The notes beneath the pieces were generated by a model. The model had not been told where the DNA came from, did no database searches, and was given only the letters and a program-made list of their open reading frames with translations. A stretch of 21,096 nucleotides of DNA from Candidatus Micrarchaeia archaeon (GTDB taxonomy: Archaea; Micrarchaeota; Micrarchaeia; Anstonellales; J096), in contig JBGQMB010000018.1 in the NCBI GenBank assembly GCA_041500405.1, positions 1 through 21,096 on the forward strand, in the 5' to 3' direction. The translations under genes were made by a program, and so were the position numbers. Of the stretch, positions 6,199-21,096 are shown piece after piece (the first letter of the stretch is position 1; every line of letters starts with the position of its first letter).

Positions 6199-8739
6199 TC
6201 ACTTCTTCCCAACAAGCTTCTGATGAAGCTCCTTGATGAATGCCTTCCTGTCCTCTATTATGACAATGTCGCTGGCCCCGAGCGCGGCTATGGAGAACCC
6301 GAACGGCGTTGGGACATCCCTGCCTCTCAGCAAAATCAGGCTCCTTTTGCCGATGTCCTCCAAACACTGGATTGCATCGTCAACGTGTATCGCCTCCTCC
6401 ATGACCTCGCGGTACGCCTCCTTCAGAAGCGGGAAATCCGGGTAATAGAGGTTTATCAGCCTGTAGAGCATGTCCGAGTTGAACTGCTGCTTTTTCAGCG
6501 AAATCATCTTTCCTGGATATCTCTTCAGCACCAAAAGGCCCCTTACGCTGACGTTCTTGAACCTCCTTCTCAAAAGCTCGCTTTTTGATATGGACGCCTT
6601 GAGGTTGGACAAAAACCTTTCCTTTGACATTGAAAGCGCCGTCCTGATGTCGTCCTCGCCAAGGTGCTTCCACCTTCCGACCGTTATCATGAACCCGTAG
6701 TCGTTTATCGTCACCCTCACGTTTGTCTTCAGCCTTTCGCTGAACGCGTTTGCGAACGCCCTTCCCAGCGCGTCGGTCGCCTTCCTGCCTGCAACGGCGT
6801 GGAATATGTAGCTCTTGAGCCCGCCATCGTCAACGTATTCCTCAACCAGCATCTCTTTCGGGCTGGGCACTGCGCCGTATTTCTTCTGCTCCAGCACGTA
6901 GCTCCTTGCCGCCTTCAGCGTTATTTCGTCAAGATGGTATTTTTCGGAAAGCTCCTTTTCCTTCATGGTCAGCGCCTCCCACCTGAATCTCTCCAGGTCC
7001 CTTGCGGACTCATAGGGCAGGGGAAGCATCTCGGAGAACCACGCCGGTATAGTCGGCTTTTTTCCGATAGCCGGATTCACAAAGACCTTGCTTCCGCGCG
7101 CGGAAATGAACTCATATGTCCTTCCGCCAAGGACAAAGATGTCGCCCGGCACAAGCCTTTCTATGAACCCCCCCTCAAGCTTTCCTATGAACTTGTTGTT
7201 CGGCATGAAAACAGGCGCGGAGCTCTCGTCCGGGATGGTGCCGGTGTTCATTATGTATATGGCGCGCGCCAGCTTTCCGCGCTTCCCGAACTTCCCGTCC
7301 TGTATCCAGATTTTTCCATATACGTATTTTGCCTCAAGCTCATTGAACTCGCCGGAAAGATACCTGATGACATTGTGGAAATCGGACTTGTCCAGCGTCG
7401 CGTAGTTGTAGCATTTGCGCACGGTTTCGTATGCCTCGTCTATGCTCCATACCCTTTCAAGGCTCATGCCAAGCACGTGCTGCACGAGCACGTCAAGCGG
7501 GTTTTTCACGACCTTTATCGACTCGAACTTCCCGTCCCTTGCGTTCTGCGCAAGGACAACGGACTCCATCATGTCGTCCCTGTCCAGCACTACCACATGG
7601 CCTACGCTGGTCTCGCTAAGCCTGTGCCCGCTTCTCCCAATCCTTTGCACGAGCCGCGTTGCGCTCTTCGGGGAGCCCAGCAGAACCACAAGGTCTATGC
7701 TTCCGATGTCTATCCCGAGCTCAAGGCTTGTCGAGCAAACGACCGCCCTCAGAAGCCCCTGCTTGAGCCTGTCCTCCGTTTCCAGCCTGGTTTCCCTGCT
7801 TATGCTGGAATGGTGCGCCTCGACGCTGTCCACGTATTTGTTTCCGTAAATGGACTTGAGGTGGAACACAACCCTTTCAGTGGCGCTCCTTGTGTTGGTG
7901 AAAATCAGCGTGGTCTGGTGCCCCTCTATCTCCTCATCCAGAAGCTTATAGAGCGCCGCGTTCGCCTGGTCCGCAGGCGTGTAAATGAAATCGTCAACAG
8001 GGCTTTTCACGCTTATCTCTATCGCCTTTATCGCGTTGACGTCAACCACGGTGCAGTCCCTTTCTGTTCCAACAAGGTATTTTGCAACCTCGTCCAATGG
8101 ATGTATTGTTGCGGAAAGGCCTATTCTCACAGGCTCGGGCTTCATCCCCGCGCTCAGCCTTTCAACAGAGAGCGCGAAGTGCGCGCCCCTCTTGTTTCCT
8201 GCCAGCGAATGTATCTCGTCCGCTATGACCCAGCTGACGTTCGTCAAAAGCATCCTGAACTTCGGCGCGTTCAGCATGATGGCAAAGCTTTCAGGCGTAG
8301 TTATGAGTATGTGGGGCGGCTTCCGAAGCATCTTCGCCTTTTCGGATGCGGTTGTGTCGCTTGTCCTTATGCCGACCCTTATGTCTAAATCTTCAATCTT
8401 CTTGCTTATGGACTCAAGCGGCACCATGAGGTTCTTTTTGATGTCGTTGTTGAGCGCCCTCAAAGGGGATACATAGATTACGTAGACCTTGTCCTCCAGC
8501 TCATTCCCTTTTCTCAGCCTTATGAGCTCGTTGAGGATAGCAAGGAACGCAGAAAGCGTCTTTCCGCTTCCTGTTGGCGAGGAGACAAGCACGTTCTTCC
8601 TGTTGTGGATTGACATGACCGCGTGCCTTTGGGCTGGGGTGAACGACTTGAACTTTTTCCTGAACCAGTCGCTGACTTCCGGCTCAAGAACGTCGTAAAT
8701 CTCCTTGTCATCGAAGGAGAACAGCGATTTTGTTATCAT
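6199..8739 (-). CDS. lhr: Lhr-type (Lhr-core) ATP-dependent SF2 helicase
   Basis: Q motif FTPAQ, Walker A SPTGSGKT, SPLRALNND, ITTPES, DEIH, GLSAT, HHSS, SLELGIDIG, QRIGRSGH, GTIPD and IPAWFSE. ATG 8739 has a GGGGTG/GAGG RBS-like sequence upstream; 8757 is an alternative start. Confidence 0.93.
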   Translation of the reverse strand: MITKSLFSFDDKEIYDVLEPEVSDWFRKKFKSFTPAQRHAVMSIHNRKNVLVSSPTGSGKTLSAFLAILNELIRLRKGNELEDKVYVIYVSPLRALNNDIKKNLMVPLESISKKIEDLDIRVGIRTSDTTASEKAKMLRKPPHILITTPESFAIMLNAPKFRMLLTNVSWVIADEIHSLAGNKRGAHFALSVERLSAGMKPEPVRIGLSATIHPLDEVAKYLVGTERDCTVVDVNAIKAIEISVKSPVDDFIYTPADQANAALYKLLDEEIEGHQTTLIFTNTRSATERVVFHLKSIYGNKYVDSVEAHHSSISRETRLETEDRLKQGLLRAVVCSTSLELGIDIGSIDLVVLLGSPKSATRLVQRIGRSGHRLSETSVGHVVVLDRDDMMESVVLAQNARDGKFESIKVVKNPLDVLVQHVLGMSLERVWSIDEAYETVRKCYNYATLDKSDFHNVIRYLSGEFNELEAKYVYGKIWIQDGKFGKRGKLARAIYIMNTGTIPDESSAPVFMPNNKFIGKLEGGFIERLVPGDIFVLGGRTYEFISARGSKVFVNPAIGKKPTIPAWFSEMLPLPYESARDLERFRWEALTMKEKELSEKYHLDEITLKAARSYVLEQKKYGAVPSPKEMLVEEYVDDGGLKSYIFHAVAGRKATDALGRAFANAFSERLKTNVRVTINDYGFMITVGRWKHLGEDDIRTALSMSKERFLSNLKASISKSELLRRRFKNVSVRGLLVLKRYPGKMISLKKQQFNSDMLYRLINLYYPDFPLLKEAYREVMEEAIHVDDAIQCLEDIGKRSLILLRGRDVPTPFGFSIAALGASDIVIIEDRKAFIKELHQKLVGKK

Positions 8740-9946: not shown

Positions 9947-9968
9947 CTCTTTGCTTCACCATGATAGC

Positions 9969-10994
9969 GTGATTTCGGCGCAGGGAAAAAAGCTTGTCCT
10001 TTCAGAGAGGGCAGAGCAGAGCAAGGCCCTGAACTTCGGGCTCGGCGAGCTGAAGGGCGGAATCCTTTACCTTGAGCCGGTTGAGGCGCTCTACCTTCAC
10101 GAGATAAAGGGGTTTGAAGCTGAAAACATCGGGACGCTTTTGGAATCTGTCGAGGGCCTGCTGGACAAATACATCGTTTTCAGGGACCTTTCAACGCGCG
10201 GATACAGGACAGGGTTCAGGGCCGGGCCAGCCGGCCAGCCAACAAAGCCCAGCGAATACAGGGGCCAGAAGGCCTCGTTCCAGGGAAAGGCGATAAGGGG
10301 CGCCGCGTCAAAGGGCCTTGTTATCTGTGAAGGCGGCATTGACCTTTACGGAAAATACTGGTTCGGCCAGCATGGCGTATACAAAAGGGAGGGGCTCGGA
10401 AGCGCGCTCATACTTGACCAGTTTGAGGCCGAGTTTTTGAAAAAGCTCGGCTTATTGAAATATTCCGGAAAGCTGAAGAAGATAAGGTATTTTGACGAAT
10501 ACTTCAAGATATACACTGAATGGAGGAGCCTCGGGTTCATACCAAAGGCGGGGTTCAAGTTCGGCGGGGACTTCAGGATATACTTTCCTGGAACAACGCC
10601 ATCCGAGTTTGAGCATTCGAAGCACGTGATGCAGGTTTTCCCTGAAAAATACACGATCGGCGCCGGGGAATGGGCGCGCGCGGTAAGGATTTCGCACGGC
10701 ATAAGGAAGACGTTCATACTCGCGATACCGGAGCTGGTCTCAAGGGTTCCGTTCAAGCCGGACATGTTCGCCGAAAGGGAGGGCGCGGGATACGCGGTAA
10801 AGGTTTTCTACGAATCAGACATCATAAGCGGGAGGGCGCTCCATTCCGCATTGTCATATTGCGCGGAAAAGGGAATCAAGATGTTAATAGCGATTGTGGA
10901 TAGGGACACATCGGTCTCCTATTACACGGTTGAGCGGGTCCTTTTGGAAGGAAGCAAGAACATGTATTTTGAGATTGGCTGGTTCAGGCCCTAA
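9969..10994 (+). CDS. endA: tRNA-intron lyase (splicing endonuclease), three-unit epsilon2-like architecture
   Basis: N-terminal unit LYLEPVEALYL..KYIVFRDLSTRGY. Catalytic unit with GFKFGGDFRIY (Tyr), EHSKH (His) and RISHGIRK (Lys). Extra C-terminal unit MLIAIVDRDTSVSYY. Inserted loop YWFGQHGVYK. GTG 9969 chosen from TATA spacing; the ORF track uses TTG 9951. Confidence 0.9.
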   Translation: MISAQGKKLVLSERAEQSKALNFGLGELKGGILYLEPVEALYLHEIKGFEAENIGTLLESVEGLLDKYIVFRDLSTRGYRTGFRAGPAGQPTKPSEYRGQKASFQGKAIRGAASKGLVICEGGIDLYGKYWFGQHGVYKREGLGSALILDQFEAEFLKKLGLLKYSGKLKKIRYFDEYFKIYTEWRSLGFIPKAGFKFGGDFRIYFPGTTPSEFEHSKHVMQVFPEKYTIGAGEWARAVRISHGIRKTFILAIPELVSRVPFKPDMFAEREGAGYAVKVFYESDIISGRALHSALSYCAEKGIKMLIAIVDRDTSVSYYTVERVLLEGSKNMYFEIGWFRP

Positions 10995-10997
10995 GTC

Positions 10998-11019
10998 CCT
11001 TTTCTTTGCAAAGAAAAGG
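10998..11019. repeat. Perfect 22-bp palindrome just after the endA stop (terminator- or boundary-like)
   Basis: CCTTTTCTTTG|CAAAGAAAAGG is self-complementary. It is followed by two copies of CTTGGGGAAA (11022-11031, 11049-11058). Confidence 0.75.
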
Positions 11020-11111
11020 CCCTTGGGGAAAAAGAAAGCATAGTGGCACTTGGGGAAAGAAAAGACCGAGAGACCCGAACCGTCGCACAACTGTGGTAAA
11101 ACGTGTTTAAA

Positions 11112-11126
11112 GATATATTTAAAAAG
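11112..11126 (+). promoter_or_regulatory. TATA box of the DGR target gene
   Basis: GATATATTTAAAAAG ending about 23 nt upstream of ATG 11149. Confidence 0.5.
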
Positions 11127-11148
11127 ACTTTGGCGCACATTCATATCC

Positions 11149-11949
11149 ATGGCAGAAACAGTCCAACTGATAAGAGGGAAGAGCCTGGAAATATTCAGAA
11201 CAAACAGCAACGGCCTTTCTGCGCGCGACGCCATAAGGAAGGTCGGCGAGGCAGGGCGTGTGATCGCCTCAAATGCAAGGATTGGCAAGGCGCTTGCAGG
11301 AGATGAATATAAATCAATAAAAGCGGTTTTCCCGTGCTGGACAGGCACGATGACCGCATATGTTGAGCCAGGAACCGCGTTCAACAAGAGCAAAATGTTC
11401 AGCAAGGAACTTCAGGCCATAGTTTATACTGATCCGGAAACAAAAGAGCGCTGGATATTCCCAGTAGGGAATTATAGAAGTGAGAAGAACGCCATCCTGG
11501 TTTCAGAGCATCCGGACTACTCGCTTGAAATCAACGGAAAGGAAATTCTGGTAAAATCAAGCGTCATTGACATTATTCCAAACTTCCCCGAAAAGGACGG
11601 CTGGTATCTCACAGACCCGAAGCATGGCATACCGGTTGGAAGTGAAGTCGGTTCAGATAATCCGAAATCAAGGCATCTGTGGCGGGTTGATGGCGCTGGC
11701 AGGGTCGGCCCTGTTGCCCGCGGCTGCGGCAGCCTCTGCTACGGCGGCAGGGGGCTCGTCCTCATCGGCGACGGGCCGTCGGTCGCTTTCGAGGTGGCGG
11801 TAGAAGCCCCCGAAGGGGGCGCGGCAGTCGAAGCCAAGCCCGCACAGATAACTGTGACAGTGAGCGGCGATACGCTGACTGTCAAGGGAACTCCTGAACA
11901 GCTGAAAGCCGTCCTGGAAATCATCAAATCCGCAAAAAGGCAGACTTGA
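11149..11949 (+). CDS. DGR target (variable) protein, 266 aa, probable C-type-lectin-fold variable domain plus a constant C-terminal extension
   Basis: Contains the VR encoding GPVARGCGSLCYGGRGLVLIGDGPSVAFE, followed by 51 constant residues. ATG 11149 is supported by TATA spacing; the track's TTG 11050 extension runs through the promoter. The fold is inferred. Confidence 0.88.
   Translation: MAETVQLIRGKSLEIFRTNSNGLSARDAIRKVGEAGRVIASNARIGKALAGDEYKSIKAVFPCWTGTMTAYVEPGTAFNKSKMFSKELQAIVYTDPETKERWIFPVGNYRSEKNAILVSEHPDYSLEINGKEILVKSSVIDIIPNFPEKDGWYLTDPKHGIPVGSEVGSDNPKSRHLWRVDGAGRVGPVARGCGSLCYGGRGLVLIGDGPSVAFEVAVEAPEGGAAVEAKPAQITVTVSGDTLTVKGTPEQLKAVLEIIKSAKRQT
11706..11792 (+). repeat. DGR variable region (VR)
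   Basis: CGGCCCTGTTGCCCGCGGCTGCGGCAGCCTCTGCTACGGCGGCAGGGGGCTCGTCCTCATCGGCGACGGGCCGTCGGTCGCTTTCGA aligns gap-free to 12154-12240 with 67/87 identity. All 20 differences are opposite TR A. Confidence 0.97.
11806..11820 (+). other. DGR homing hairpin/cruciform with GAA triloop, inside the coding sequence
   Basis: GCCCCC-GAA-GGGGGC is a perfect 6-bp GC stem starting 14 nt after the VR. It also encodes A-P-E-G-G. Confidence 0.8.
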
Positions 11950-12000
11950 ATAGTGCCCGTAACGCCTTGATTTTTAATTCCTTGTTTTATACTCATAATT

Positions 12001-12135
12001 CCCAGAGTGTGAGGCTGGGCCACACACCCGTCTGTAGTTCCGGCTTAAGCCGGATGTAAAATTCAGCCGCAACACACAGTAAGCCGGTTTGGCGGAAAAC
12101 GTGAAGCGGCGGTGCAGGCTCTTTTGGGCCTTTTT
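12001..12135 (+). ncRNA. Putative structured 5' leader of the TR-containing DGR RNA
   Basis: Non-coding interval downstream of an AT-rich TATA-like tract (11971-12000). It contains the perfect 16-nt palindrome TCCGGCTTAAGCCGGA (12039-12054), a possible long-range pairing GTGTG-A-GGCTG (12007-12017) with CAGCC-GCAA-CACAC (12064-12077), and the hairpin AGGCTC-TTTT-GGGCCT (12116-12131). Confidence 0.45.
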
Positions 12136-12153
12136 GGCAGATGGGTTACCTTG

Positions 12154-12240
12154 CGGCCCTGTTGCCCGCGGCTACAACAACCTCAACTACAACAACAGGA
12201 GGAACGTCAACATCAACAACAGGCCGTCGGACGCTTTCGA
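12154..12240 (+). repeat. DGR template region (TR)
   Basis: CGGCCCTGTTGCCCGCGGCTACAACAACCTCAACTACAACAACAGGAGGAACGTCAACATCAACAACAGGCCGTCGGACGCTTTCGA. It has 26 adenines, with nine AAC codons in the VR reading frame, and ends 33 nt before the RT start. Confidence 0.97.
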
Positions 12241-12273
12241 ATGACCCAGCCCCCTCTGGAAAAGGCGGAGCAT

Positions 12274-13344
12274 ATGAAGACATACAGGAACCTGTATCCG
12301 CAGCTTTGCTCCTATGAAAACCTTGTGCTTGCGTTCAGAAGGGCAAGGAAAAGGAAGACCCACAAACAGTATGTCGTTGAATTTGAGGCGCGCCTTGAGG
12401 AAAATCTCATGCGGCTTAAGCACGAACTGGAAACGTTTTCATATCGGCCGGCGCCTGTTGCCACATTTATAATAAAGGACCCGAAGACAAGGCGGATAAG
12501 CGCATCGGATTTCCGCGACCGCGTCGTGCACCACGCGCTATGCAACATAATCGGCCCGGTTTTCGAGAGCAGGTTCATCTTCGACTCGTTTGCCAACAGG
12601 AAGGGCAAGGGAACACATTCGGCGATAATAAGGTTTGAGAAATTCATGCGGGGCGTTTCGCTGAACAGAAGGAATTGTACGGACGATATGCATCCACACG
12701 GCAATGCGGTAATCGGCTATGCCTTGAAAGCGGACGTAAGGCACTATTTTGACACCGTGGATCATCGGATTCTGCTTAGCATAATCAAGCGCCGCATAAT
12801 GGATCCAAGTGCGCTTTGGCTGATAAGGATAATCCTCGAGCATCACAAGTCCGCCGCCCCAGAAAAGGGCATGCCGCTCGGCAACTTGACATCTCAGCTC
12901 TTTGCCAACATATACCTGAACGAGTTAGACCAGTTCGTGAAGCATGCGCTGAAGGCCAGATATTATATGCGCTATGTTGATGATTTTGCCATTCTCCACC
13001 GCGACAGGAAAACGTTGGAATGCTGGAAAGGCGGAATATCCGCCTTTCTTGAGCAATGCCTTAATTTAAGCCTGCATCCGGAAAAATCAAAGGTCATTCC
13101 GCTCAGGAATGGCATAACGCTGCTTGGCTTCAGGGTATTCTGCCATTACAGGCTGCTCAAAAAGAGCAACGTCCGCCGCATCTGGAAACGCCTCAGGTTA
13201 TTCAAGCGGAAATTCAATAAAAGCGAAATGGAGAAGACAGAGATTGAGCAGAGCATGGCCGGCTGGTTCGCCTATGCCGCTTTCGCCAATTCATACAGCC
13301 TGAGGCAAAGGGTCGCTGCACGTCTAAATGGGCTTTTTGGATAG
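12274..13344 (+). CDS. DGR reverse transcriptase (356 aa)
   Basis: KTRRISASDFRDRVVHHAL, DSFANRKGKGTH, ALKADVRHYFDTVDH, the DGR-type GMPLGNLTSQLFANIYLNELD, catalytic YMRYVDDF, LHPEKS and GITLLGF. GGAG RBS at 12267-12270 precedes ATG 12274. Confidence 0.96.
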   Translation: MKTYRNLYPQLCSYENLVLAFRRARKRKTHKQYVVEFEARLEENLMRLKHELETFSYRPAPVATFIIKDPKTRRISASDFRDRVVHHALCNIIGPVFESRFIFDSFANRKGKGTHSAIIRFEKFMRGVSLNRRNCTDDMHPHGNAVIGYALKADVRHYFDTVDHRILLSIIKRRIMDPSALWLIRIILEHHKSAAPEKGMPLGNLTSQLFANIYLNELDQFVKHALKARYYMRYVDDFAILHRDRKTLECWKGGISAFLEQCLNLSLHPEKSKVIPLRNGITLLGFRVFCHYRLLKKSNVRRIWKRLRLFKRKFNKSEMEKTEIEQSMAGWFAYAAFANSYSLRQRVAARLNGLFG

Positions 13345-13508: not shown

Positions 13509-13760
13509 ATGAACATACTTGTAAGGCTCGAGGGGGTTCCGGAAAAGGCCCTTGAATTCATGATAAGCAAGGGATTCTTCAAGACAAAGAACGAGGCGAT
13601 AAGGGCGGCCCTGGTCGGCATGGCAAAGGAATATTCGCTGCTCAACGACGAGGATTTCCTTGCCGCAATAAAGCTGCGCGGCCTTGAGGCAAGGCGGAAA
13701 GCAGGAAAGCTCAGGACCGAAACCCTTGGCGAAGTCAGGAAAAGATACGGGATAAAGTGA
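13509..13760 (+). CDS. Ribbon-helix-helix antitoxin (83 aa)
   Basis: MNILVRLEG..ALEFMISKGFFKTKNEAIRAAL fits the RHH (G-x-F/Y-x-x-x-x-E-A-I-R) pattern. GGTGAGG RBS upstream. The stop overlaps the next start (GTGA). Confidence 0.8.
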   Translation: MNILVRLEGVPEKALEFMISKGFFKTKNEAIRAALVGMAKEYSLLNDEDFLAAIKLRGLEARRKAGKLRTETLGEVRKRYGIK

Positions 13761-14017
13761 AGTATGAAATAATATTCGGCGAAGGATGGGAGCGTTTTTT
13801 CTCCTTTCTCGACAATTCAGTAAAGAAAAACATCCTGCGCAGAATAGGGCGCATGGCCGAAATGCCGCCAGGAAGGCATCTCCGCTTCGGCTCCGGGTTC
13901 TTTGTCGAGGAAATCGGGCAGTACAGGATACTGTATGCCGTTGATGGGCAAACAAAGATAATCTATTTTGTCGGGACGCACAAGGATTACGAAAAATTCA
14001 TAGGCTTGAGGAAATGA
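13757..14017 (+). CDS. RelE/ParE-family toxin (86 aa)
   Basis: MKYEIIF....ERFFSFLD....KNILRRI...IGQYRILYAVD..TKIIYFVGTHKDY fits the RelE fold pattern. Translationally coupled to the antitoxin. Confidence 0.82.
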   Translation: MKYEIIFGEGWERFFSFLDNSVKKNILRRIGRMAEMPPGRHLRFGSGFFVEEIGQYRILYAVDGQTKIIYFVGTHKDYEKFIGLRK

Positions 14018-14021
14018 GCGT

Positions 14022-15119
14022 TCAGTTCCTCGTGACCAGCGTTATTATGTCGCCGTCCTTCAAGACGTGGTCTCCGCCCACGCGCTGGCCCCCGAACTTT
14101 GCGCTCGGCCCCCAAACAAGGCAGTAGCGCAGGCTCTTCGCAAGCTCCCTGTGCAGGACCTTCGCGGCCTCCCTCACGGTTGATCTGCTCTTGAGCATCA
14201 TCGGCTTTTCCATATCGGGCTTTCCCCCGGCCGGCTTCGTGAAAACGCGGATGAAGTCCAAATCCCTGAAAATCCTTTCCTTGAGCAGCTCAAGGCCCGT
14301 CTGGTCCTTCGCAGAGACGAAAACGGCATCCCTGAACTTCCTTTTCAGCTCGTCCCTCATTTTGTCGTCGGCAAGGTCTATCTTGTTGATTATCACTATC
14401 ATTTTCGAGTAAATCCTGTTTCTTTCAAGCGCATCTATGAACCTGTCCGCGTCAACGTCCTCACGGACAATCACGGTCGCGTTGTGGATGCTGTATTCGT
14501 TGAGTATCCCCTTCATGGTCCTGTCGTCGATTTTCGTTATTTTCCTTGTCTTTATGATGTTGAGCCCTCCGCGCGGGTGCTTCTCAACTGTCACATCAGG
14601 GAACTTCTCGTTCAGCCTCATGCCCACGCCCCTGAGCTCCCTCATTATGGCGTTGAACTCCTTTTCCGCGGAAAACGGGGTCAGTATTATTATGAGCATG
14701 TCCGAGCTTCTTGCCACGCCGATGATTTCCCTTCCCCTTCCCTTTCCCTCCTTCGCGCCCTCTATTATTCCCGGAAGGTCAAGAATCTGGATTTCGGTCT
14801 CATTGTACTTCATCATGCCCGGAATCACGGTAAGCGTGGTGAACGCGTATTCCGCGACCTTGCTTTTCGCGTTTGTAATGCTCGTCAGTATCATTGATTT
14901 TCCGACTGAAGGGAAGCCTATGAGCGCAACGGTCGCGTCGCCGGTCTTTATTACGTCAAAGCCGCCCCCGCCTCCGCCGCCCTTGCCCCTTTCAAGCTGC
15001 GCCCGCCTGAGCTTGGCTATCTTTGCCTTGAGCAGTCCGATGTGGTGCTCCGTAGCCTTGTTCTTCTGCGTGCGGAGTATCTCATCCTCGATTTCCTTGA
15101 TTTTTTCCGGTATTCCCAT
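14022..15119 (-). CDS. DRG/Rbg1-family OBG GTPase with C-terminal TGS domain
   Basis: TQKNKATEHHIGLLKAKIAKL, G1 GFPSVGKS, YAFTTL, G3 DLPGIIEGA, G4 NKID and TGS WGPSAKFGGQRVG.DHVLKDGD. Confidence 0.95.
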   Translation of the reverse strand: MGIPEKIKEIEDEILRTQKNKATEHHIGLLKAKIAKLRRAQLERGKGGGGGGGFDVIKTGDATVALIGFPSVGKSMILTSITNAKSKVAEYAFTTLTVIPGMMKYNETEIQILDLPGIIEGAKEGKGRGREIIGVARSSDMLIIILTPFSAEKEFNAIMRELRGVGMRLNEKFPDVTVEKHPRGGLNIIKTRKITKIDDRTMKGILNEYSIHNATVIVREDVDADRFIDALERNRIYSKMIVIINKIDLADDKMRDELKRKFRDAVFVSAKDQTGLELLKERIFRDLDFIRVFTKPAGGKPDMEKPMMLKSRSTVREAAKVLHRELAKSLRYCLVWGPSAKFGGQRVGGDHVLKDGDIITLVTRN

Positions 15120-15274: not shown

Positions 15275-18200
15275 ATGAAGGGCTATGTATACGCAACCAA
15301 GATGTTCAGCGTTGCGTTTGTAGCGTTGGTGCTGTTGCTAGCAGGGCTTAGCTTAACTTCAGCCAATGGCGGAACCTCAATCCTTGATGAAATAAACGCC
15401 TCGCTCTCCAACGCGACGGAATGCCAGGACGGCTCGATGTGCCTGCTCAACGGCTCTATGCTGAACGAGAGCGTTCCGCAAAATGATACGGAGATTCCGG
15501 CAAACGAGACTCCGATTTTGTCTGTCAACGAAACCTGGCTATGGCTGGATGTGGACGGCGAAACCGCCAACGAGACTGCTGCAAATGGCACAGAGTCCAA
15601 CACCCCTGGGCTGAACGAAACAATCTTGAACGAAACCGCTGTTGAAAACGAAACCCTTGCCCCAGAGCCGCCAACAATGGAAACATGGCTGGACTCCAAG
15701 CCGCCTATAAACGGCTCCTTCAAGGACATTTCCGCAAAGCGCATAAAAGCCAGCGGGAAGACCAAGCTGTCTTCAGGAGGATACAAGTCCGAAATCGACA
15801 CATCCGCATACGACATGCTGGCAAAGAACAGGACCGTGCGCATAATCGTGAAAGCGGACAAGATGGAGCTGCACAGCAAAAACATGACAGAGTTGGGTTC
15901 CATCGATGGCAGGGGCCTGCAAGTGCTTGAGATGAACCAGAAATGGCTCGCAACCCTTGTGCAGTCCGGCGCAACAAAGATTTACCTTGACACGGAGATG
16001 TCCCTTTCGCTTGATGAAAGCATCCCGCTGATAAGGGCGGATGCGGCAAAGGACTCTTTCGGCGTTTCGGGAAGCGGCATCGCAATCTGTTTGCTGGACA
16101 CTGGCGTGGACTACAGCGACGAACAATTTGAGGGCACTGCTGCAAGCGGATACGACTTCATAAACAACGACACAGACGCCATGGACGACAACGGCCACGG
16201 CACGCTGATGGCATCGGCGATACACAGGATTGCGCCAGGCGCAACGATTATCGCAGTGAAGGTGCTTGACAGCTCAGGCCACGGCTACGCCTCTGATGTA
16301 ATCTCCGGCATAGACTTTTGCAGGGAAGTTGCGGCAAACAACGACATAACAGGGGACAAAATCAAAATCATCTCAATGAGCTTCGGCGGCGGGAATTTCA
16401 CAGGATACTGCGACTCAAGCCCAATTGCAGCAGCAATCCAGGATGCATATGACGCCGGCATCCTTTCGGTCGCATCTTCGGGCAACGGCGGATTGGATGC
16501 GATAACGATGCCTGCGTGCGCAGCAAGCGCAACAGCGGTCGCGTCAACGAACAAGTCAGACGCGATATCCTCTTTCTCAAATATAAACCCGATGGTGGAC
16601 CTGCTTGCGCCGGGCGAGGAGATAATTGCGCAGGGGCTTGGCGGCGCGCAAACGGTTTCAGGAACCTCAATGAGCGCAGCGCACGTCTCAGGGGCAGCGG
16701 CATTGCTGTTTGAGACGGATGGCGACATGGCTCCTTTTGACGCAGAGGAAAGGTTCAGGGCAACAGGCATACTTGTCCAGCAGGGCAGCGTATCCTACCC
16801 GCGCATAGACGCGCTCAATGCCCTTATGAACAATCTTACTGGCATACCAGAAACGCCGGCAGTGAACGAAACAAACGAGACGTACGAGGGAGGGTTCGAG
16901 ACGGCGGCATGGGCCGACGCAACGTTCGACAGGTGCAAGAACATAACCGTATGGAACACGGGAGCTACGGTGCTGACAAACTTTCCTGCGCTTGTCAACC
17001 TCACCTATGACAGCGACATGATGGCGGATTATTCAGACCTGCGCTTCTACAACACGTCATGCGGTGGCGACCCCGCCAGCAAGCTTGACTATGAAATAGA
17101 AAACTACACGGCGTCAAACGCATTGATTTGGGTTCGTGTCCCGTCAATCGCAGTCGGCAACATAACCAACATATCGGTCTATTACAAGAACAACACGGCA
17201 CACAACGGAGAGCAGAACAAAACAGGCGTGTGGAACGTGAACTATGTCGGCGTATGGCATTTGCAGGAACAGCCAAATGCCACTGCACCGCAAATGAAGG
17301 ACAGCACCGCCAACACCAACGACTGCACAACGGCAGGCTCAATGACAGGCGCACAGCAGGTCGCGGGGAAGGTTGACGGAAGCCTGAACTTCTTGGGAAC
17401 AGATGATACCGCAAACTGCGGAAATGACGCAGAACTGCGCATATTGGGGAACCTGACTGTTGAGGCTTGGGCAAAGCCGAGTGCCAATGCAACAACAATA
17501 GGCATTTTTACAAAGATGAACGCCACAAGCCCATATACCGGCTGGCAGTTGAGGAGGCAGAGCAACAATACATTCGCCTTTGTCACGACAAACACCACAG
17601 CCGACACCATATTCAGCAACCTGACATATACTGATAATAACTGGCATCATATCGTAGGAACGCTGGCAGGAACGCAGAAATTCCTGTTTGTTGATGGAGT
17701 AAGACAATTGTCAAATAGCACATCGCAAGGCATGGTTTCAAACTTTGAGAACGTTACGATAGGCAGGAGATATGCAGACGGAACAGGCTGGTGGACTGGC
17801 GGGATTGACGAGGTTCGCATCTCCAACACCACAAGGACGCCTGAATGGATTAACATGACCTATTCCATGATGGCGACAAACAATGGACGGCTTTCGTTTG
17901 GCGCTGAACAAAACCAGCCGACGATAGACACAGCCAGCCCGGCGATAGAATTCGCAACGCCCACTGACAACTCCAGCACGACTGTGAACAGGGCATTCAT
18001 CCAAACCAACGTTTCTGCCGAAGATTCCGGCGCAGGGCTCAAGAACATAACCATCTACCTCCACAATGCCACAGGCGCGCTGATTAACTCCAGCACAAGC
18101 GCAACAAGCCCGCTCTTCGCCAACTTCAGCGTGTCGGCGGCTGGCACATACTACTTCAACGCAACGGCCTATGACAACGCAGGCAACCTCAACAAGACCG

Positions 18201-21096
18201 AAACAAGAAATATCACGATAGCACCCGCGGCTTCGCCAACAGTGGCGCTGGTTTCGCCGCATGGCAACTACACCAACACAGATGGGAATGTCTCGTTCAT
18301 ATTCAACGTTTCCTCATCCCAAAACATCCTGAACTGCACGCTGATAATCAACAGCACGGTGAACCAGACCATTGCGGATGTTGCCAGGGGCCAGAACCAG
18401 GCATTCAATCTCACGGGCCTTGAGGCAGGCTGCCTGGACTGGGGCGTAAACTGCATGGATGGCCTTGGGAACAGCGGCGCCTCGGAAACAAGGCGCCTGG
18501 ACCTGGTGCTGGCCACGGAGTTCAGCGGCGAGTCCACAAACCTGTCGCAGGTTCCGGATTTGTCCAGCATAGCCAACCTAACGCTGGAGAAGCCCTTGAT
18601 TGCCAAACTGGAGTTCCAGGAACAGGTAGACCTGAGCTGCGGGGCGGACCTTGACGCCGCCGTAAAAATCGCGCCTGCATCGATTTCCGTAAACTCGACC
18701 AAGGAGCCCAGGCTCAACAAGAAGGCGCGCCTGTATTTTTTCAATCTTCCATACGCGCAGACGCCCATACTGCTGAAGGACGGCGCGCCGTGCGAGGACT
18801 GCACCATAATGTCCTATATAAACAGCACTCTCAAAGCGAACGTGACTCACTTCACAAACTACACAACCGGCGCAAACAGCAACCTCACAATATGGGACGA
18901 GACTGACGGTTTGGGCGGCTCGCAGACAAGATACGCCGGAAACCAAACCCGCTTCTTTGCGAACTACAGCAACAGGACAAGCAATGCGCCGATAAATGGC
19001 AGCGGAATAGGCTGCAGCATCGCATTTTCCGATTCAGGCAGCAACATGCCATACAATGCGACCTCAAAGCTTTACGAGTACAACAGGAGCTTCGGCTCCC
19101 CGGGCGCATATGCGTGGAACGTGACATGCAACGGCTCTTCCCTGGGCTACGAGGTTCTGAACGCCACGGACACGGTTTCGGTTTCCGCGCCAGGCACTGT
19201 GCAATACAACTTCAGCCAGGGCGGCGCGGCAAACAAGGCATACCAGGGCAACACCTCGGGCGCCCTGCCGCCGGCATCAGGGCCGGCCGTACTGAACGAG
19301 ACTGAGTTCAACGCCACCCATTATGCCCAGATAAACAGCTCAGACAGCTCCTTTGTGCTGACTACATCGTCATCAGGCTACAGGACGCAGCGGTTCCTTT
19401 TCAACATAACCCAGGACAGGGCTTCCCTGCTCCAGATAAACATAACCTGGAAAGGCAACAGCAGCGGCAATACTGCCAGCAGGTGGGTCAGCATATACGC
19501 GTGGAACTTCACAAGCAGCAGCTGGGGCAGCCCCCTTTTCAGGTACAACCCGAGCGCCAGCACATTGTTCAATGTATCGCTCAATTCCGGGTTCAGCGAC
19601 TACGTGAACGGCTCGGGCGCGTTCACGTTCATTGCAGAGGGCGAATCCGCGACCGCGCTGACGCTTGCAGGCGACTATGCGGCGCTGACGGTCTATTACG
19701 ATTCCGTTGCCCCAACCGCGGCGCCGGCAAGCCCTGCCGACGGAAACATTACAGCAATTGACGAGGCTGATTTCGTCTGCAACGCAACTGACGACGCCAG
19801 CCTGAAAAACGTGACGCTATATTGGAATTATTCAGGGGCCTGGCAGGCTAACGCAACAGCCAGCATAACCGGCATATCCAACTCAAGCACATTCTCAAAG
19901 TCCCAACTTGCCAACGGCGCCATCTCATGGAACTGCTATGCATGCGACAACTCCGGCAAGTGCTCATTTGCGGAATTCAACTCCACCGTTATCGTGAACT
20001 CCTCAACAAGCACGATTTTCTTCGACGGCTTCGAGTCAGGGAACCTGGACCAGTGGAATAGGACTGCTGTATCAGGCGCGAACAACTGGACCGTGCTTAC
20101 GACAAGCCCCTACAAAGGGACATACCACGCGCAGTCCAACCCGGTAAGCACGTCCAACCCGGCAAGCATAATGGACATCAACATAAGCACGTCCGGATAC
20201 AACAACATAACATTCAGCTATTACAGGTGGCTCGTGCTCGGCACCGCGCTCAAGAACTTCACAGTGAAATGGTACGACGGCGCAAGCTGGAATACCCTGG
20301 AATCAACGGTCAATGTTGACGAGGCAAACTACACCTACAAAACGTTTGCCCTTCCTGCATCCGCAAGCAAAAACCAGAACCTCCGCATCAGGTTCGAGTG
20401 CACGTCAGGCGCGACCGGGGACTTCTGCAGGCTTGACAACGTCAAGGTCACTGGCATCGCGGTTTCCACGGTTCCGATTGTAAATTCCGTGTCAGTTTCC
20501 CCGGACCCGGTCGCTGCCAGCAGCGGGACAAAGATAACCGCGAACGCGACAGACGACATAAACATCTCTTCAGTCATATTGGAGATTATGGACACCAACT
20601 ACAGCATGGCCCAGCAGTCGCCCATAGGCGGCAGCTATGCGAACCTGTTTGAGGACGGCTTTGAGTCAGGGAGCGTGGCCTCCAACTGGGCCATGAACGG
20701 CACAAAATACTGGTCTGCCTCCTCTGCAAGCGGAGGCTATTCGGCCCAGATACAGCAAAGCGGCGCAGGGGAGCCTAGCTCGATAGAGGCAAGCATAAGC
20801 ACAGCAGGGTACCAGGACATCACAATCAGCTACCGCAAGCAATTGGTCGGCCTGGACGCCGCTGATGCGTTCACGGCGGAGTGGTACAACGGCTCTGTCT
20901 GGACGACGATTGAGGATAAGGGAAGCGGCTCTGAAGACGACGCAGACTTCATCTATGCCAATTTCTCGCTTCCTGCAGGCGCCAGCAACACCGCTTCATT
21001 CAAGATAAGGTTCACGTGCGAATGCGGCGCAGTGACCGAATACTGCAGGATAGACGACGTCGATGTCGGCGGGTCGCACCTCTCGGGCTCAACAGA
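15275..21096 (+). CDS. Giant secreted multidomain S8 (subtilisin-like) peptidase / surface glycoprotein, >1940 aa, 3'-truncated by the window edge
   Basis: Absent from the ORF track because it has no stop in the window. Manual translation gives a signal peptide (MKGYVYATKMFSVAFVALVLLLAGLSLTSA) and the triad D (LLDTGVD, 16097), H (DNGHGT, 16196), S (SGTSMSAAHVSGAAALL, 16667) plus the oxyanion SSGN. Then a DUF2341-like segment (SDLRFY..LDYEIE..IWVRVP), a LamG/ConA-like domain (WHHIVGT..LFVDG..GGIDEVRISN), several Ig-like beta modules and two F-x-D-G-F-E-S-G modules. Confidence 0.9.
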   Translation, partial: MKGYVYATKMFSVAFVALVLLLAGLSLTSANGGTSILDEINASLSNATECQDGSMCLLNGSMLNESVPQNDTEIPANETPILSVNETWLWLDVDGETANETAANGTESNTPGLNETILNETAVENETLAPEPPTMETWLDSKPPINGSFKDISAKRIKASGKTKLSSGGYKSEIDTSAYDMLAKNRTVRIIVKADKMELHSKNMTELGSIDGRGLQVLEMNQKWLATLVQSGATKIYLDTEMSLSLDESIPLIRADAAKDSFGVSGSGIAICLLDTGVDYSDEQFEGTAASGYDFINNDTDAMDDNGHGTLMASAIHRIAPGATIIAVKVLDSSGHGYASDVISGIDFCREVAANNDITGDKIKIISMSFGGGNFTGYCDSSPIAAAIQDAYDAGILSVASSGNGGLDAITMPACAASATAVASTNKSDAISSFSNINPMVDLLAPGEEIIAQGLGGAQTVSGTSMSAAHVSGAAALLFETDGDMAPFDAEERFRATGILVQQGSVSYPRIDALNALMNNLTGIPETPAVNETNETYEGGFETAAWADATFDRCKNITVWNTGATVLTNFPALVNLTYDSDMMADYSDLRFYNTSCGGDPASKLDYEIENYTASNALIWVRVPSIAVGNITNISVYYKNNTAHNGEQNKTGVWNVNYVGVWHLQEQPNATAPQMKDSTANTNDCTTAGSMTGAQQVAGKVDGSLNFLGTDDTANCGNDAELRILGNLTVEAWAKPSANATTIGIFTKMNATSPYTGWQLRRQSNNTFAFVTTNTTADTIFSNLTYTDNNWHHIVGTLAGTQKFLFVDGVRQLSNSTSQGMVSNFENVTIGRRYADGTGWWTGGIDEVRISNTTRTPEWINMTYSMMATNNGRLSFGAEQNQPTIDTASPAIEFATPTDNSSTTVNRAFIQTNVSAEDSGAGLKNITIYLHNATGALINSSTSATSPLFANFSVSAAGTYYFNATAYDNAGNLNKTETRNITIAPAASPTVALVSPHGNYTNTDGNVSFIFNVSSSQNILNCTLIINSTVNQTIADVARGQNQAFNLTGLEAGCLDWGVNCMDGLGNSGASETRRLDLVLATEFSGESTNLSQVPDLSSIANLTLEKPLIAKLEFQEQVDLSCGADLDAAVKIAPASISVNSTKEPRLNKKARLYFFNLPYAQTPILLKDGAPCEDCTIMSYINSTLKANVTHFTNYTTGANSNLTIWDETDGLGGSQTRYAGNQTRFFANYSNRTSNAPINGSGIGCSIAFSDSGSNMPYNATSKLYEYNRSFGSPGAYAWNVTCNGSSLGYEVLNATDTVSVSAPGTVQYNFSQGGAANKAYQGNTSGALPPASGPAVLNETEFNATHYAQINSSDSSFVLTTSSSGYRTQRFLFNITQDRASLLQINITWKGNSSGNTASRWVSIYAWNFTSSSWGSPLFRYNPSASTLFNVSLNSGFSDYVNGSGAFTFIAEGESATALTLAGDYAALTVYYDSVAPTAAPASPADGNITAIDEADFVCNATDDASLKNVTLYWNYSGAWQANATASITGISNSSTFSKSQLANGAISWNCYACDNSGKCSFAEFNSTVIVNSSTSTIFFDGFESGNLDQWNRTAVSGANNWTVLTTSPYKGTYHAQSNPVSTSNPASIMDINISTSGYNNITFSYYRWLVLGTALKNFTVKWYDGASWNTLESTVNVDEANYTYKTFALPASASKNQNLRIRFECTSGATGDFCRLDNVKVTGIAVSTVPIVNSVSVSPDPVAASSGTKITANATDDINISSVILEIMDTNYSMAQQSPIGGSYANLFEDGFESGSVASNWAMNGTKYWSASSASGGYSAQIQQSGAGEPSSIEASISTAGYQDITISYRKQLVGLDAADAFTAEWYNGSVWTTIEDKGSGSEDDADFIYANFSLPAGASNTASFKIRFTCECGAVTEYCRIDDVDVGGSHLSGST
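20015..21070 (+). repeat. Internal duplication of a ~145-aa beta-sandwich module in the giant protein
   Basis: Copy 1 (~20015-20455): IFFDGFESG..ISTSGYNNITFSY..WYDGASW..FALPASAS..IRFECT..FCRLDNV. Copy 2 (~20645-21070): LFEDGFESG..ISTAGYQDITISY..WYNGSVW..FSLPAGAS..IRFTCE..YCRIDDV. Confidence 0.8.

Follow-up and report, generated by a model that had tools for sequence, protein, structure and literature searches.

The stretch of DNA analyzed here, called the window, is the whole 21,096-nucleotide (nt) contig JBGQMB010000018.1 (contig C18) of a Candidatus Micrarchaeia archaeon, and it belongs to an assembly (GCA_041500405.1) of 916 kb in 60 contigs, with 51% G+C and a rated completeness of 86%. 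Between positions 11149 and 13344 it carries a target gene containing a variable repeat (VR), a template repeat (TR), and a gene for a reverse transcriptase (RT). These very probably constitute a chromosomal diversity-generating retroelement (DGR) of a Micrarchaeota (DPANN) archaeon. The complete cassette, with all its cis elements, can be read in 2.3 kb.

The repeat pair and the reverse transcriptase

The target gene (11149–11949, plus strand) encodes a variable protein of 266 amino acids (aa), in which the VR corresponds to residues 186–216 and is followed by 50 residues. This repeat (VR1, 11706–11792) lies 448 nt upstream of the TR (12154–12240). When the two were re-aligned, 87 nt matched without a gap and all 20 mismatches fell on adenines of the TR, a result identical to that of the preliminary description made from the sequence. 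The homology extends by one further base (A at 12241 in the TR, G at 11793 in VR1), giving 21/21 mismatches at A over 88 nt for the plus-strand repeats 11706–11793 and 12154–12241, and it is bounded on both sides by non-A mismatches. Over the 87 nt, the TR consists of 26 A, 30 C, 19 G, and 12 T (27 adenines counting 12241), and the changes in VR1 relative to the TR are A>G at 14 sites, A>T at four, and A>C at two. The codons of the TR that contain these adenines in the frame of the target are 9 AAC, 3 AGG, 2 TAC, 1 ATC, 1 GAC, and a terminal GAA, or 17 in all. The codon tally given previously was correct apart from this last codon, which had gone uncounted, and its estimate of roughly 10^14 protein variants was of the right order: by our calculation, 2.7e14 are allowed without GAA and 1.3e15 with it.

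A whole-genome scan for matches to the non-A positions of the TR identified a second variable repeat (VR2) on the minus strand of contig C3. It lies in a gene (33909–34700) for a 263-aa paralog of the target with 75% protein identity. VR2 has 15 mismatches to the TR inside the repeat, and all 15 are at TR adenines (P about 4e-10). DNA identity between the target genes on C18 and C3 is 84% upstream of the VR, falling to 75% over the 150 nt that immediately precede it, and all 61 non-A positions of the TR are identical in the TR, VR1, and VR2 (in VR2 from the second base). Because the non-A positions are unchanged despite these diverged flanks, both VRs must have been overwritten from the TR after the two genes had diverged. 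A survey of DGRs used a rule of at least five mismatches specific to A and one other at most (PMC5006420); the figures here are 20/20 for VR1 and 15/15 for VR2, with no non-A mismatch inside the repeat.

The 3′ ends of the repeats resemble the initiation of mutagenic homing (IMH) elements of known DGRs. The end of VR1 (11785–11800, plus strand) reads …GCTTTCGAGGTGGCGG, vs. …GCTTTCGAATGACCC at the end of the TR; when the three repeat ends are compared, VR1 has CGAGGTGG, VR2 has CGGGGTGG, and the TR has CGAATGAC. The contrast between IMH and IMH* is present as GAGGTGG/GGGGTGG at the ends of the VRs vs. GAATGAC at the end of the TR, and on this evidence the VR 3′ end may act as the IMH. The TR ends in an IMH*-like CGAATGACC, and GGAATGAC-like ends are conserved behind the TRs of relatives in the alignment. 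VR1 and VR2 both run into a shared GGTGGCGGTAGAA…CCCCGAAGGGGGCGCGGC stretch. Located 13 nt behind VR1 and within the target frame, where it codes for APEGG, is a GC hairpin or cruciform, GCCCCC-GAA-GGGGGC (11806–11820, plus strand), whose predicted DNA fold has a 6-bp stem, a 3-nt loop, and an energy of −8.3 kcal/mol over a 43-nt stretch. VR2 carries a weaker copy of it. In relatives, where hairpins were judged by eye from folds (an automatic flag caught 2 of 26), the hairpin is at the same place in the RT-adjacent target genes of loci L004, L005, L018, and L022, and it is kept with a different stem (GCCAGC-GAA-GCTGGC) in L007; many target paralogs without a nearby RT are also without the hairpin. 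In the Bordetella phage BPP-1, a hairpin/cruciform and the IMH are reported to suffice for targeting (Guo et al., PMC3240598). For nanoarchaeal DGRs, GRA tri-loop hairpins within the target gene and an IMH of TGGGGT vs. an IMH* of TGGAAT have been described (Paul et al., PMC4372165).

The RT gene (12274–13344, plus strand) begins 33 nt after 12240. It encodes 356 aa in an unbroken frame with the motifs LGNLTSQ and YVDD, so that the intact RT of the preliminary description was found as placed there. The protein matched the Pfam family RVT_1 (2.7e-20) and was the sole RVT_1 match in the genome. Among NCBIfam models it scored 161 bits with the group II RT/maturase model (cut-off 300) and 44 with the retron St85 model (cut-off 235), and it remained far below the cut-offs of the Drt2–5 models. 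The closest solved RT was the 328-aa RT of structures 8ub7–8ube (8ub7_A; E 4.3e-48 over residues 2–343), compared with 1e-22 for the best group II RT, and the match spans the same residues as that to BPP-1 brt. In tblastn, the RT showed 35% identity to the RT of the archaeal virus ANMV-1 (5e-65) and 31% to BPP-1 brt (1e-45), and it also matched many phage RTs. DGR RTs are reported to have [I/V/L]GxxxSQ as their signature instead of QGxxxSP, along with YxDD, and residues R74 and I181 of the BPP-1 enzyme (bRT), the latter being the first signature residue, to promote adenine mutagenesis (PMC7826257). LGNLTSQ fits this signature, and in the alignment with 8ub7, R73 of the window RT corresponds to bRT R74 and L202 of LGNLTSQ to I181.

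We constructed a maximum-likelihood tree from 36 RTs. Besides the window RT it included 24 from related loci, those of BPP-1 (brt), ANMV-1, three other phages, and one Fischerella plasmid, and five annotated as group II. Support for the split between these last five and the remaining 31 was 100/100, in a tree whose ingroup was picked by likeness to the query and left out retron RTs, and which addresses only the choice between DGR and group II. Within a DPANN-dominated group, the window RT belonged to a clade made up of five Micrarchaeota rows (100/97). In addition, 57 of 88 related RT loci had an A-biased TR/VR pair within the DNA examined, as found by A-tolerant extension.

If the two repeats were an ordinary diverged repeat, or the product of gene conversion, their adenine differences would have arisen by chance. 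The bare existence of repeats is all that favors this explanation. For all 20 mismatch sites to land on A, at 26 of the 87 positions, the probability is C(26,20)/C(87,20) = 9.7e-15, or about 1e-14, to which the independent VR2 adds its own value of about 4e-10; moreover, a DGR-type RT is located next to the TR, and the same architecture recurs in relatives. We regard a chance origin as practically negligible. The identification as a DGR, which had been proposed from the sequence with the placement of the RT among DGR RTs as a check, is borne out by the A-only mismatches, the RT clade, the hairpin behind the VR, and the lectin-like fold of the target described below.

The target family and the leader of the template

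The target protein matched no Pfam or NCBIfam family. It had no signal-like N-terminus or hydrophobic segment (the top 19-residue Kyte–Doolittle mean was 1.2), and by default its predicted localization is cytoplasmic. A search of 5.8 billion proteins gave 73 homologs, none with a Pfam domain, and those that were named all came from Micrarchaeota-type archaea/Bilamarchaeaceae or an “uncultured archaeon.” About 50 genome loci of Micrarchaeota carry the family, a single genome often having several copies, and the relatives of the target and the RT are assigned to Candidatus Micrarchaeota, Micrarchaeia, or Bilamarchaeaceae. In an alignment of 62 members, the block RVGPVARG … PS…GVAVEAP is conserved, with a hypervariable stretch between.

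An AlphaFold2 model built on this alignment had a mean predicted local distance difference test score (pLDDT) of 91.9, falling to 63 at residues 191–200 within the VR. When the model was compared with 48,161 representative chains using VIA, all of the 50 best rows were C-type-lectin folds (Z 6.2–8.1, model residues 9–222), including the DGR variable proteins AvpA (5ioo_B; Z 7.5, root-mean-square deviation 3.8, 151 aligned residues, 9% identity) and TaqVP (5vf4_A; Z 7.0); these Z values are middling on the tool’s own scale, and the fold call rests on the uniformity of the list and the span. The model supports a C-type-lectin-like fold over residues 9–222, with the VR at the end of the fold; DGR targets usually have their VR in the 3′ part of the gene, in a C-type-lectin (or Ig) fold. 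Foldseek retrieved no PDB match for the model at E ≤ 0.001, its top rows being unrelated OB folds and a superantigen. A profile of the 62 family members, searched against all PDB sequences, did not find AvpA (5ioo) at E ≤ 10, and for this reason we filed the target as a lectin-fold variable protein with an AvpA-like layout, not as an AvpA homolog. A match of the target profile to a PurT-type formyltransferase (20 bits, E 0.002) was taken as chance.

A third paralog, on the minus strand of contig C39 (5979–6704), is 57% identical. Its VR-like region carries 6 inserted nt together with several changes at non-A sites, and the hairpin is missing; to judge from its sequence, this VR is decayed and not addressable by the TR of the window. 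The preliminary description had presented a single diversified protein. The adjacent target was confirmed, but there are two live targets, the C3 paralog with VR2 being the second. The region upstream of the target (11091–11148, plus strand) contains an A/T-rich TATA-like stretch, common to the C3 and C39 paralogs, that may function as the promoter. These 58 nt are identical between C18 and C3 (about 34701–34758), whereas the coding parts of the three paralogs are 57–84% identical, and the corresponding region of C39 (about 6705–6762) differs from C18 at 3 of the 36 nt searched. With up to seven mismatches allowed in 36 nt, the shared promoter was found nowhere else in the genome beyond the three paralogs. 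It is either under strong constraint or recently homogenized.

The space between the target and the TR is occupied by a structured RNA. RT-16 RNA (Rfam RF03019), a family without an assigned function, matched at 11980–12154 on the plus strand with 70.5 bits (gathering threshold 50; E 2e-9) over the full model (1–158). The match comprises the 175 nt directly 5′ of the TR, ending on the first TR base, and a MAFFT alignment with relatives suggests that the conserved core begins near 12000. No open reading frame (ORF) of at least 60 aa is located wholly between the target stop (11949) and the TR. Two inverted repeats, 12029–12056/12408–12435 and 12181–12197/12372–12388, were also observed in the window. 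RT-16 is present in all eight RT-bearing Micrarchaeota loci that encode a target homolog and in 14 of 18 further DPANN RT loci (L053–L070), with none in the other four; in L069 it is on the opposite strand and about 1 kb off, and at the locus of Nanoarchaeota SCGC AAA011-G17 (L062) it abuts the TR. Wherever both RT-16 and an A-biased TR were found, the 3′ end of the RNA was no more than about 25 nt from the TR start and frequently coincided with it. RNAalifold of 19 RT-16 sequences predicted 21 pairs, 19 of them with compensatory changes, and a 10-bp closing helix just before the TR.

In BPP-1, a “cPRT stop” duplex between the sequences flanking the TR has been reported (bioRxiv 10.1101/2023.10.23.563531); RNAalifold over RT-16, the TR, and the start of the RT gave no conserved pairing across the TR in an alignment that is poor there. 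As a control, the Rfam family Phage_DGR (RF03022) was recovered between the TR and brt of BPP-1. ANMV-1 had no RT-16 match at the gathering threshold. RT-1 to RT-19 were described as motifs near RT genes, and in the available part of that paper only RT-10, the BPP-1 spacer, is tied to a DGR, while a role for the others is speculated (Weinberg et al., 2017, PMC5737381). The literature that names RF03019 consists of database or method papers only. We read RT-16 as the 5′ leader of the DPANN DGR template RNA, which gives this orphan Rfam family a concrete job. As far as we searched, this is not spelled out in print, and the supplement of Weinberg et al. (2017) or Paul et al. (2017, Nat Microbiol) may already state it.

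Activity, helper protein, and genomic setting

The locus is present in five sediment-metagenome runs, one of which is possibly the source of the genome. In run X2, the flanking contigs stop at 11727 and resume at 11784, i.e., the assembly breaks exactly at the VR. Two 116-nt contigs bridge 11698–11813; one is identical to the window (depth 3.2) and the other has 11 differences (depth 2). The C3 gene with VR2 would differ from VR1 at 22 places over the same interval, and the flanks are shared, so that the divergent contig represents a second allele of VR1. Run X5 contained a diverged strain.

Several observations weigh against the DGR reading. The first concern the metagenomes, of which four of the five were compared; all five are DNA contigs, in which rare variants are not visible. 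In X2, a tally of change types places at most 10 of the 11 differences at TR adenines (three start from C, and VR1 has two C at TR-A sites), and this tally may mix records. In runs X3 (11531–11894) and X4 (11502–12182), VR1 is exactly as in the window, with no differences; the dominant allele is thus stable from one sample to another, and its turnover is not fast. Second, no match to the Avd families PF05635 or PF22296 was found at E ≤ 1 in this assembly, and tblastn of the genome with the Avd-like ORFs of L013 and L018 gave nothing below E 1.9, while BPP-1 bbp7 as a positive control matched PF22296 at 7e-36. Avd is required in the Bordetella phage system. Third, the reach of the RT tree is limited by its sampling, as stated above.

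The absence of Avd from the genome is provisional because the assembly is 86% complete, and a small, divergent, or unassembled helper is possible; Avd is also not part of the definitions used in DGR surveys. We scanned 133 small ORFs (75–190 aa) around RT-16 in 21 related loci and found two PF05635 proteins, both downstream of the RT (L013 and L018), leaving 19 of the 21 RT-16-bearing relatives with no Avd-type ORF near the RT. A third Avd-like ORF was detected by tblastn in L006. A 465-aa RT homolog (P0166) with both RVT_1 and the bAvd-like PF22296 is an apparent RT–Avd fusion. Avd-type helpers occur in the clade, and a position near the RT is not the rule.

In favor of a DGR that was active until recently and is now frozen despite its intact-looking cassette, for example through the loss of Avd, are the failure to find an Avd-type gene in the assembly (916 kb, 86% complete) and the identical VR1 in X2 (one of the two alleles), X3, and X4. 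However, the two VRs have no non-A differences within flanks diverged by 16–25%, the RT frame is intact with its catalytic and signature motifs, X2 contains a second VR1 allele, and the scan of the 21 loci marks the lack of a nearby Avd-type ORF as the norm of the clade and not as a recent loss. We consider a frozen element unlikely. Our own reading is one of past retrohoming at both loci, which was recent, and of some standing variation with one dominant, stable allele. As regards the recent or ongoing activity suggested earlier, it gains from the second allele in X2 and loses from the identical VR1 in X3 and X4. The variation expected within the VR was seen in X2, where the differences lie within the A-bearing part of the VR and the flanks are shared; its A-specificity per position is capped at 10/11 by the tally.

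The RT genes of relatives differ from that of the window in one respect. Six of the eight RT genes beside target homologs (L004, L013, L018, L022, L023, and L036) have a frame break between the conserved motifs RFEKFMR and GYALKADI, and every break region contains a G or C run of 8–12 (G12, G9, G8, C9, C10, and C8 were seen). The window RT has 63 nt between the two motifs, in frame and with no homopolymer run. In the 80 best-scoring further RT loci, a set biased towards unbroken genes, nine had G runs of 7–11; six were split across frames, three at a run. Homopolymer runs in the RT were also seen at L060, L073, L080, L097, L100, L113, and L130, and at other loci the runs are in frame. An intron or a programmed frameshift was suspected and set aside, as the breaks are at G/C runs and the spacers are both 3n+1 and 3n+2. 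Slippage tracts or assembly errors fit better than a fixed frameshift site; phase variation, in which the run would switch the mutagenic RT on and off by slippage, programmed slippage, and assembly error are all conceivable. A literature search on homopolymers, frameshifts, or phase variation in DGR RTs gave no fitting title or abstract. It is conceivable, and we propose it only tentatively, that Avd is dispensable in the DPANN DGR clade, that RT-16, 5′ of the template, holds the RT and positions the template for priming, and that the G/C runs in the RTs of relatives are on/off switches, of which the window would have a locked-on version.

The cassette is surrounded by cellular genes. EndA, the tRNA-splicing endonuclease (endA, 9951–10994), is directly upstream of the target, and a DRG-type GTPase (14022–15119, minus strand) lies beyond the RT and a small two-gene pair. 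TR and VR are colinear without gaps and so contain no intron-like insert, and we regard the location of endA beside the target as coincidental. Farther out are Alba, an Lhr-type helicase, serine hydroxymethyltransferase (SHMT), and a giant subtilase-like ORF. A Pfam scan of the 17 window ORFs (PHROGs was not run) yielded no family of capsids, terminases, or integrases, and the window contains no tRNA genes. The cellular setting described earlier from EndA, the DRG GTPase, and the lack of phage genes is confirmed by these two genes and by Alba, the Lhr helicase, and SHMT; the two-gene pair had not been mentioned. It consists of an 83-aa ORF (13509–13760) with a ribbon-helix-helix (RHH)-like N-terminus and no family match, and an 86-aa ORF (13757–14017) that overlaps it by 4 nt and matches ParE_toxin weakly (E 5e-4), short of the cut-off. 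Directly after the RT, this RHH-like/ParE-like pair is likely a toxin–antitoxin pair. Toxin–antitoxin genes also occur near related DGR loci, namely HicAB in L062 and PIN/MazE in L060.

We also weighed whether the cassette is a viral, proviral, or mobile island that diversifies a viral receptor-binding protein, as in BPP-1 or ANMV-1. The toxin–antitoxin-like pair after the RT would suit such an origin, and phages often carry DGR RTs, the window RT having matches in 177 phage records. Nevertheless, core archaeal genes flank the cassette on both sides within 1 kb (EndA and the DRG GTPase) and are followed by Alba, the Lhr helicase, and SHMT; the Pfam scan gave no capsid, terminase, or integrase, and the window has no tRNA; two further target paralogs with the same promoter are on other contigs; and the target family is spread over its Micrarchaeota loci, often in multiple copies. 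A viral origin is very improbable on this evidence, and we prefer a chromosomal DGR acting on cellular proteins.

Two other features of the window were noted. The giant ORF (15275–21094) exceeds 1,940 aa and runs off the window end; close to its N-terminus lies a subtilisin-like protease domain, it also contains repeats of a fimbrial or beta-barrel-like kind, and it is presumably a surface protease or adhesin. An intergenic repeat of ~45–50 nt that contains a perfect palindrome (CCCTTTTCTTTGCAAAGAAAAGGG) is located at 10998–11047 and also at 12 or more further genomic sites, including C17 13858, C11 7933, C15 1353 and 4526, C40 1512, C12 20385, and C39 5870 and 6869, so that the C39 paralog of the target is bracketed by it on both sides. 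This element probably represents a terminator-like or miniature mobile repeat. Loose ends of metagenome contigs at 11039–11047 were considered as a boundary of the cassette and rejected, because they arise, as does the high depth, from this multi-copy repeat.

Proposed mechanism and comparison with known systems

Based on these results, we infer the transcript, the cDNA synthesis, and the mode of priming as follows. The A/T-rich TATA-like stretch around 11963–11991 would drive a transcript that starts near, or shortly before, 12000 and carries the RT-16 leader, the 88-nt TR, and the RT frame. The RT would bind this RNA and copy the TR into cDNA, misincorporating opposite adenines, and the cDNA would then replace the VRs marked by the IMH-like GAGGTGG/GGGGTGG and the GAA-loop GC hairpin, in cis and in trans. 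Two genes would be addressed, the adjacent 266-aa gene (VR1) and the C3 paralog (VR2), the C39 paralog having lost its target site. Seventeen codons at the C-terminal end of the lectin-like fold would be varied in this way, corresponding to about 1e14–1e15 proteins. In the particle formed by BPP-1, bRT–Avd is enveloped by RNA from around the TR, which also positions a cis-primer (bioRxiv 10.1101/2023.10.23.563531), and because of this analogy RT-16 is likely an RT-binding and positioning module, possibly one that works without Avd.

The window provides a compact, complete, and apparently recently active archaeal DGR in a host genome of roughly 1 Mb, and it defines a family of lectin-fold variable proteins specific to Micrarchaeota and recognized by no domain library. 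As a DGR in which no Avd was found and whose structured RNA is upstream of the template, it is a natural test case of whether such an arrangement can work, which bears on the minimal parts for DGR-based directed-evolution tools, and if the Avd-free reading were true, it would represent an RNA-scaffolded, Avd-free form of mutagenic retrohoming. If the lack of an export signal holds, the hypervariation would act on an intracellular or unconventionally exported binder. Host attachment is the role usually proposed for the targets of DPANN DGRs, among which a target without export would be unusual.

The BPP-1 element (mtd-avd-TR-brt) shares with the window the adenine-specific transfer from TR to VR, the [I/V/L]GxxxSQ signature of the RT, a lectin-fold target with a C-terminal VR, and the IMH and hairpin behind the VR (PMC3240598). 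In BPP-1, however, avd (PF22296) is located between the target and the TR, whereas none was found in the window, and the structured RNA (RF03022) is 3′ of the TR, whereas in the window RT-16 is 5′ of the TR and the gap between TR and RT is short. The 5′ position of RT-16 and the apparent lack of Avd are the real differences from BPP-1. BPP-1 is also phage-borne, whereas the window element is cellular and has two targets, one of them remote. ANMV-1 (KP703175) is archaeal and has the same order of target, TR, and RT, with a short gap between target and RT as in the window, but it is viral, with a tail-fiber context, and its RT falls outside the DPANN-dominated group that contains the window RT. 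As for RT-16 itself, the motif is placed near RT genes in the available part of Weinberg et al. (PMC5737381), and the window places it exactly between a DGR target and its TR.

The closest parallel is with the single-cell-derived DGRs of Nanoarchaeota DUSEL4 with AvpA, which have the same target–TR–RT order (Paul et al., 2015, PMC4372165; Handa et al., 2016, PMC5006420). Like the window, these have a GRA tri-loop hairpin inside the target gene and a G-run IMH vs. a GAAT IMH* (PMC4372165). In AvpA the VR is at the end of the lectin fold and is followed by a 46-residue tail with the hairpin (PMC5006420), which compares with the 50-residue tail with the hairpin in the window target. The nanoarchaeal RT of L062 belongs to the same DPANN-dominated tree group as the window RT. 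Unlike these elements, the window DGR has a Micrarchaeota host and a target without a sequence link to AvpA; and in the available portions of the nanoarchaeal papers, the small basic ORFs that lie between target and RT are termed “Avd-like” solely for their size and charge, where the window has RT-16. DGRs of Nanoarchaeota, Pacearchaeota, and Woesearchaeota have already been published (PMC6349945, PMC5758913), as have DPANN DGRs with the same hairpin and target layout (PMC4372165, PMC5006420); our literature search, by title or abstract start, gave no paper on a DGR of Micrarchaeota. Compared with these systems, the window DGR is a clean new example with no new mechanism, and what it adds to them is a set of two live and one decayed targets, an unannotated family of lectin-fold targets, the placement of RT-16, and a provisional independence of Avd.

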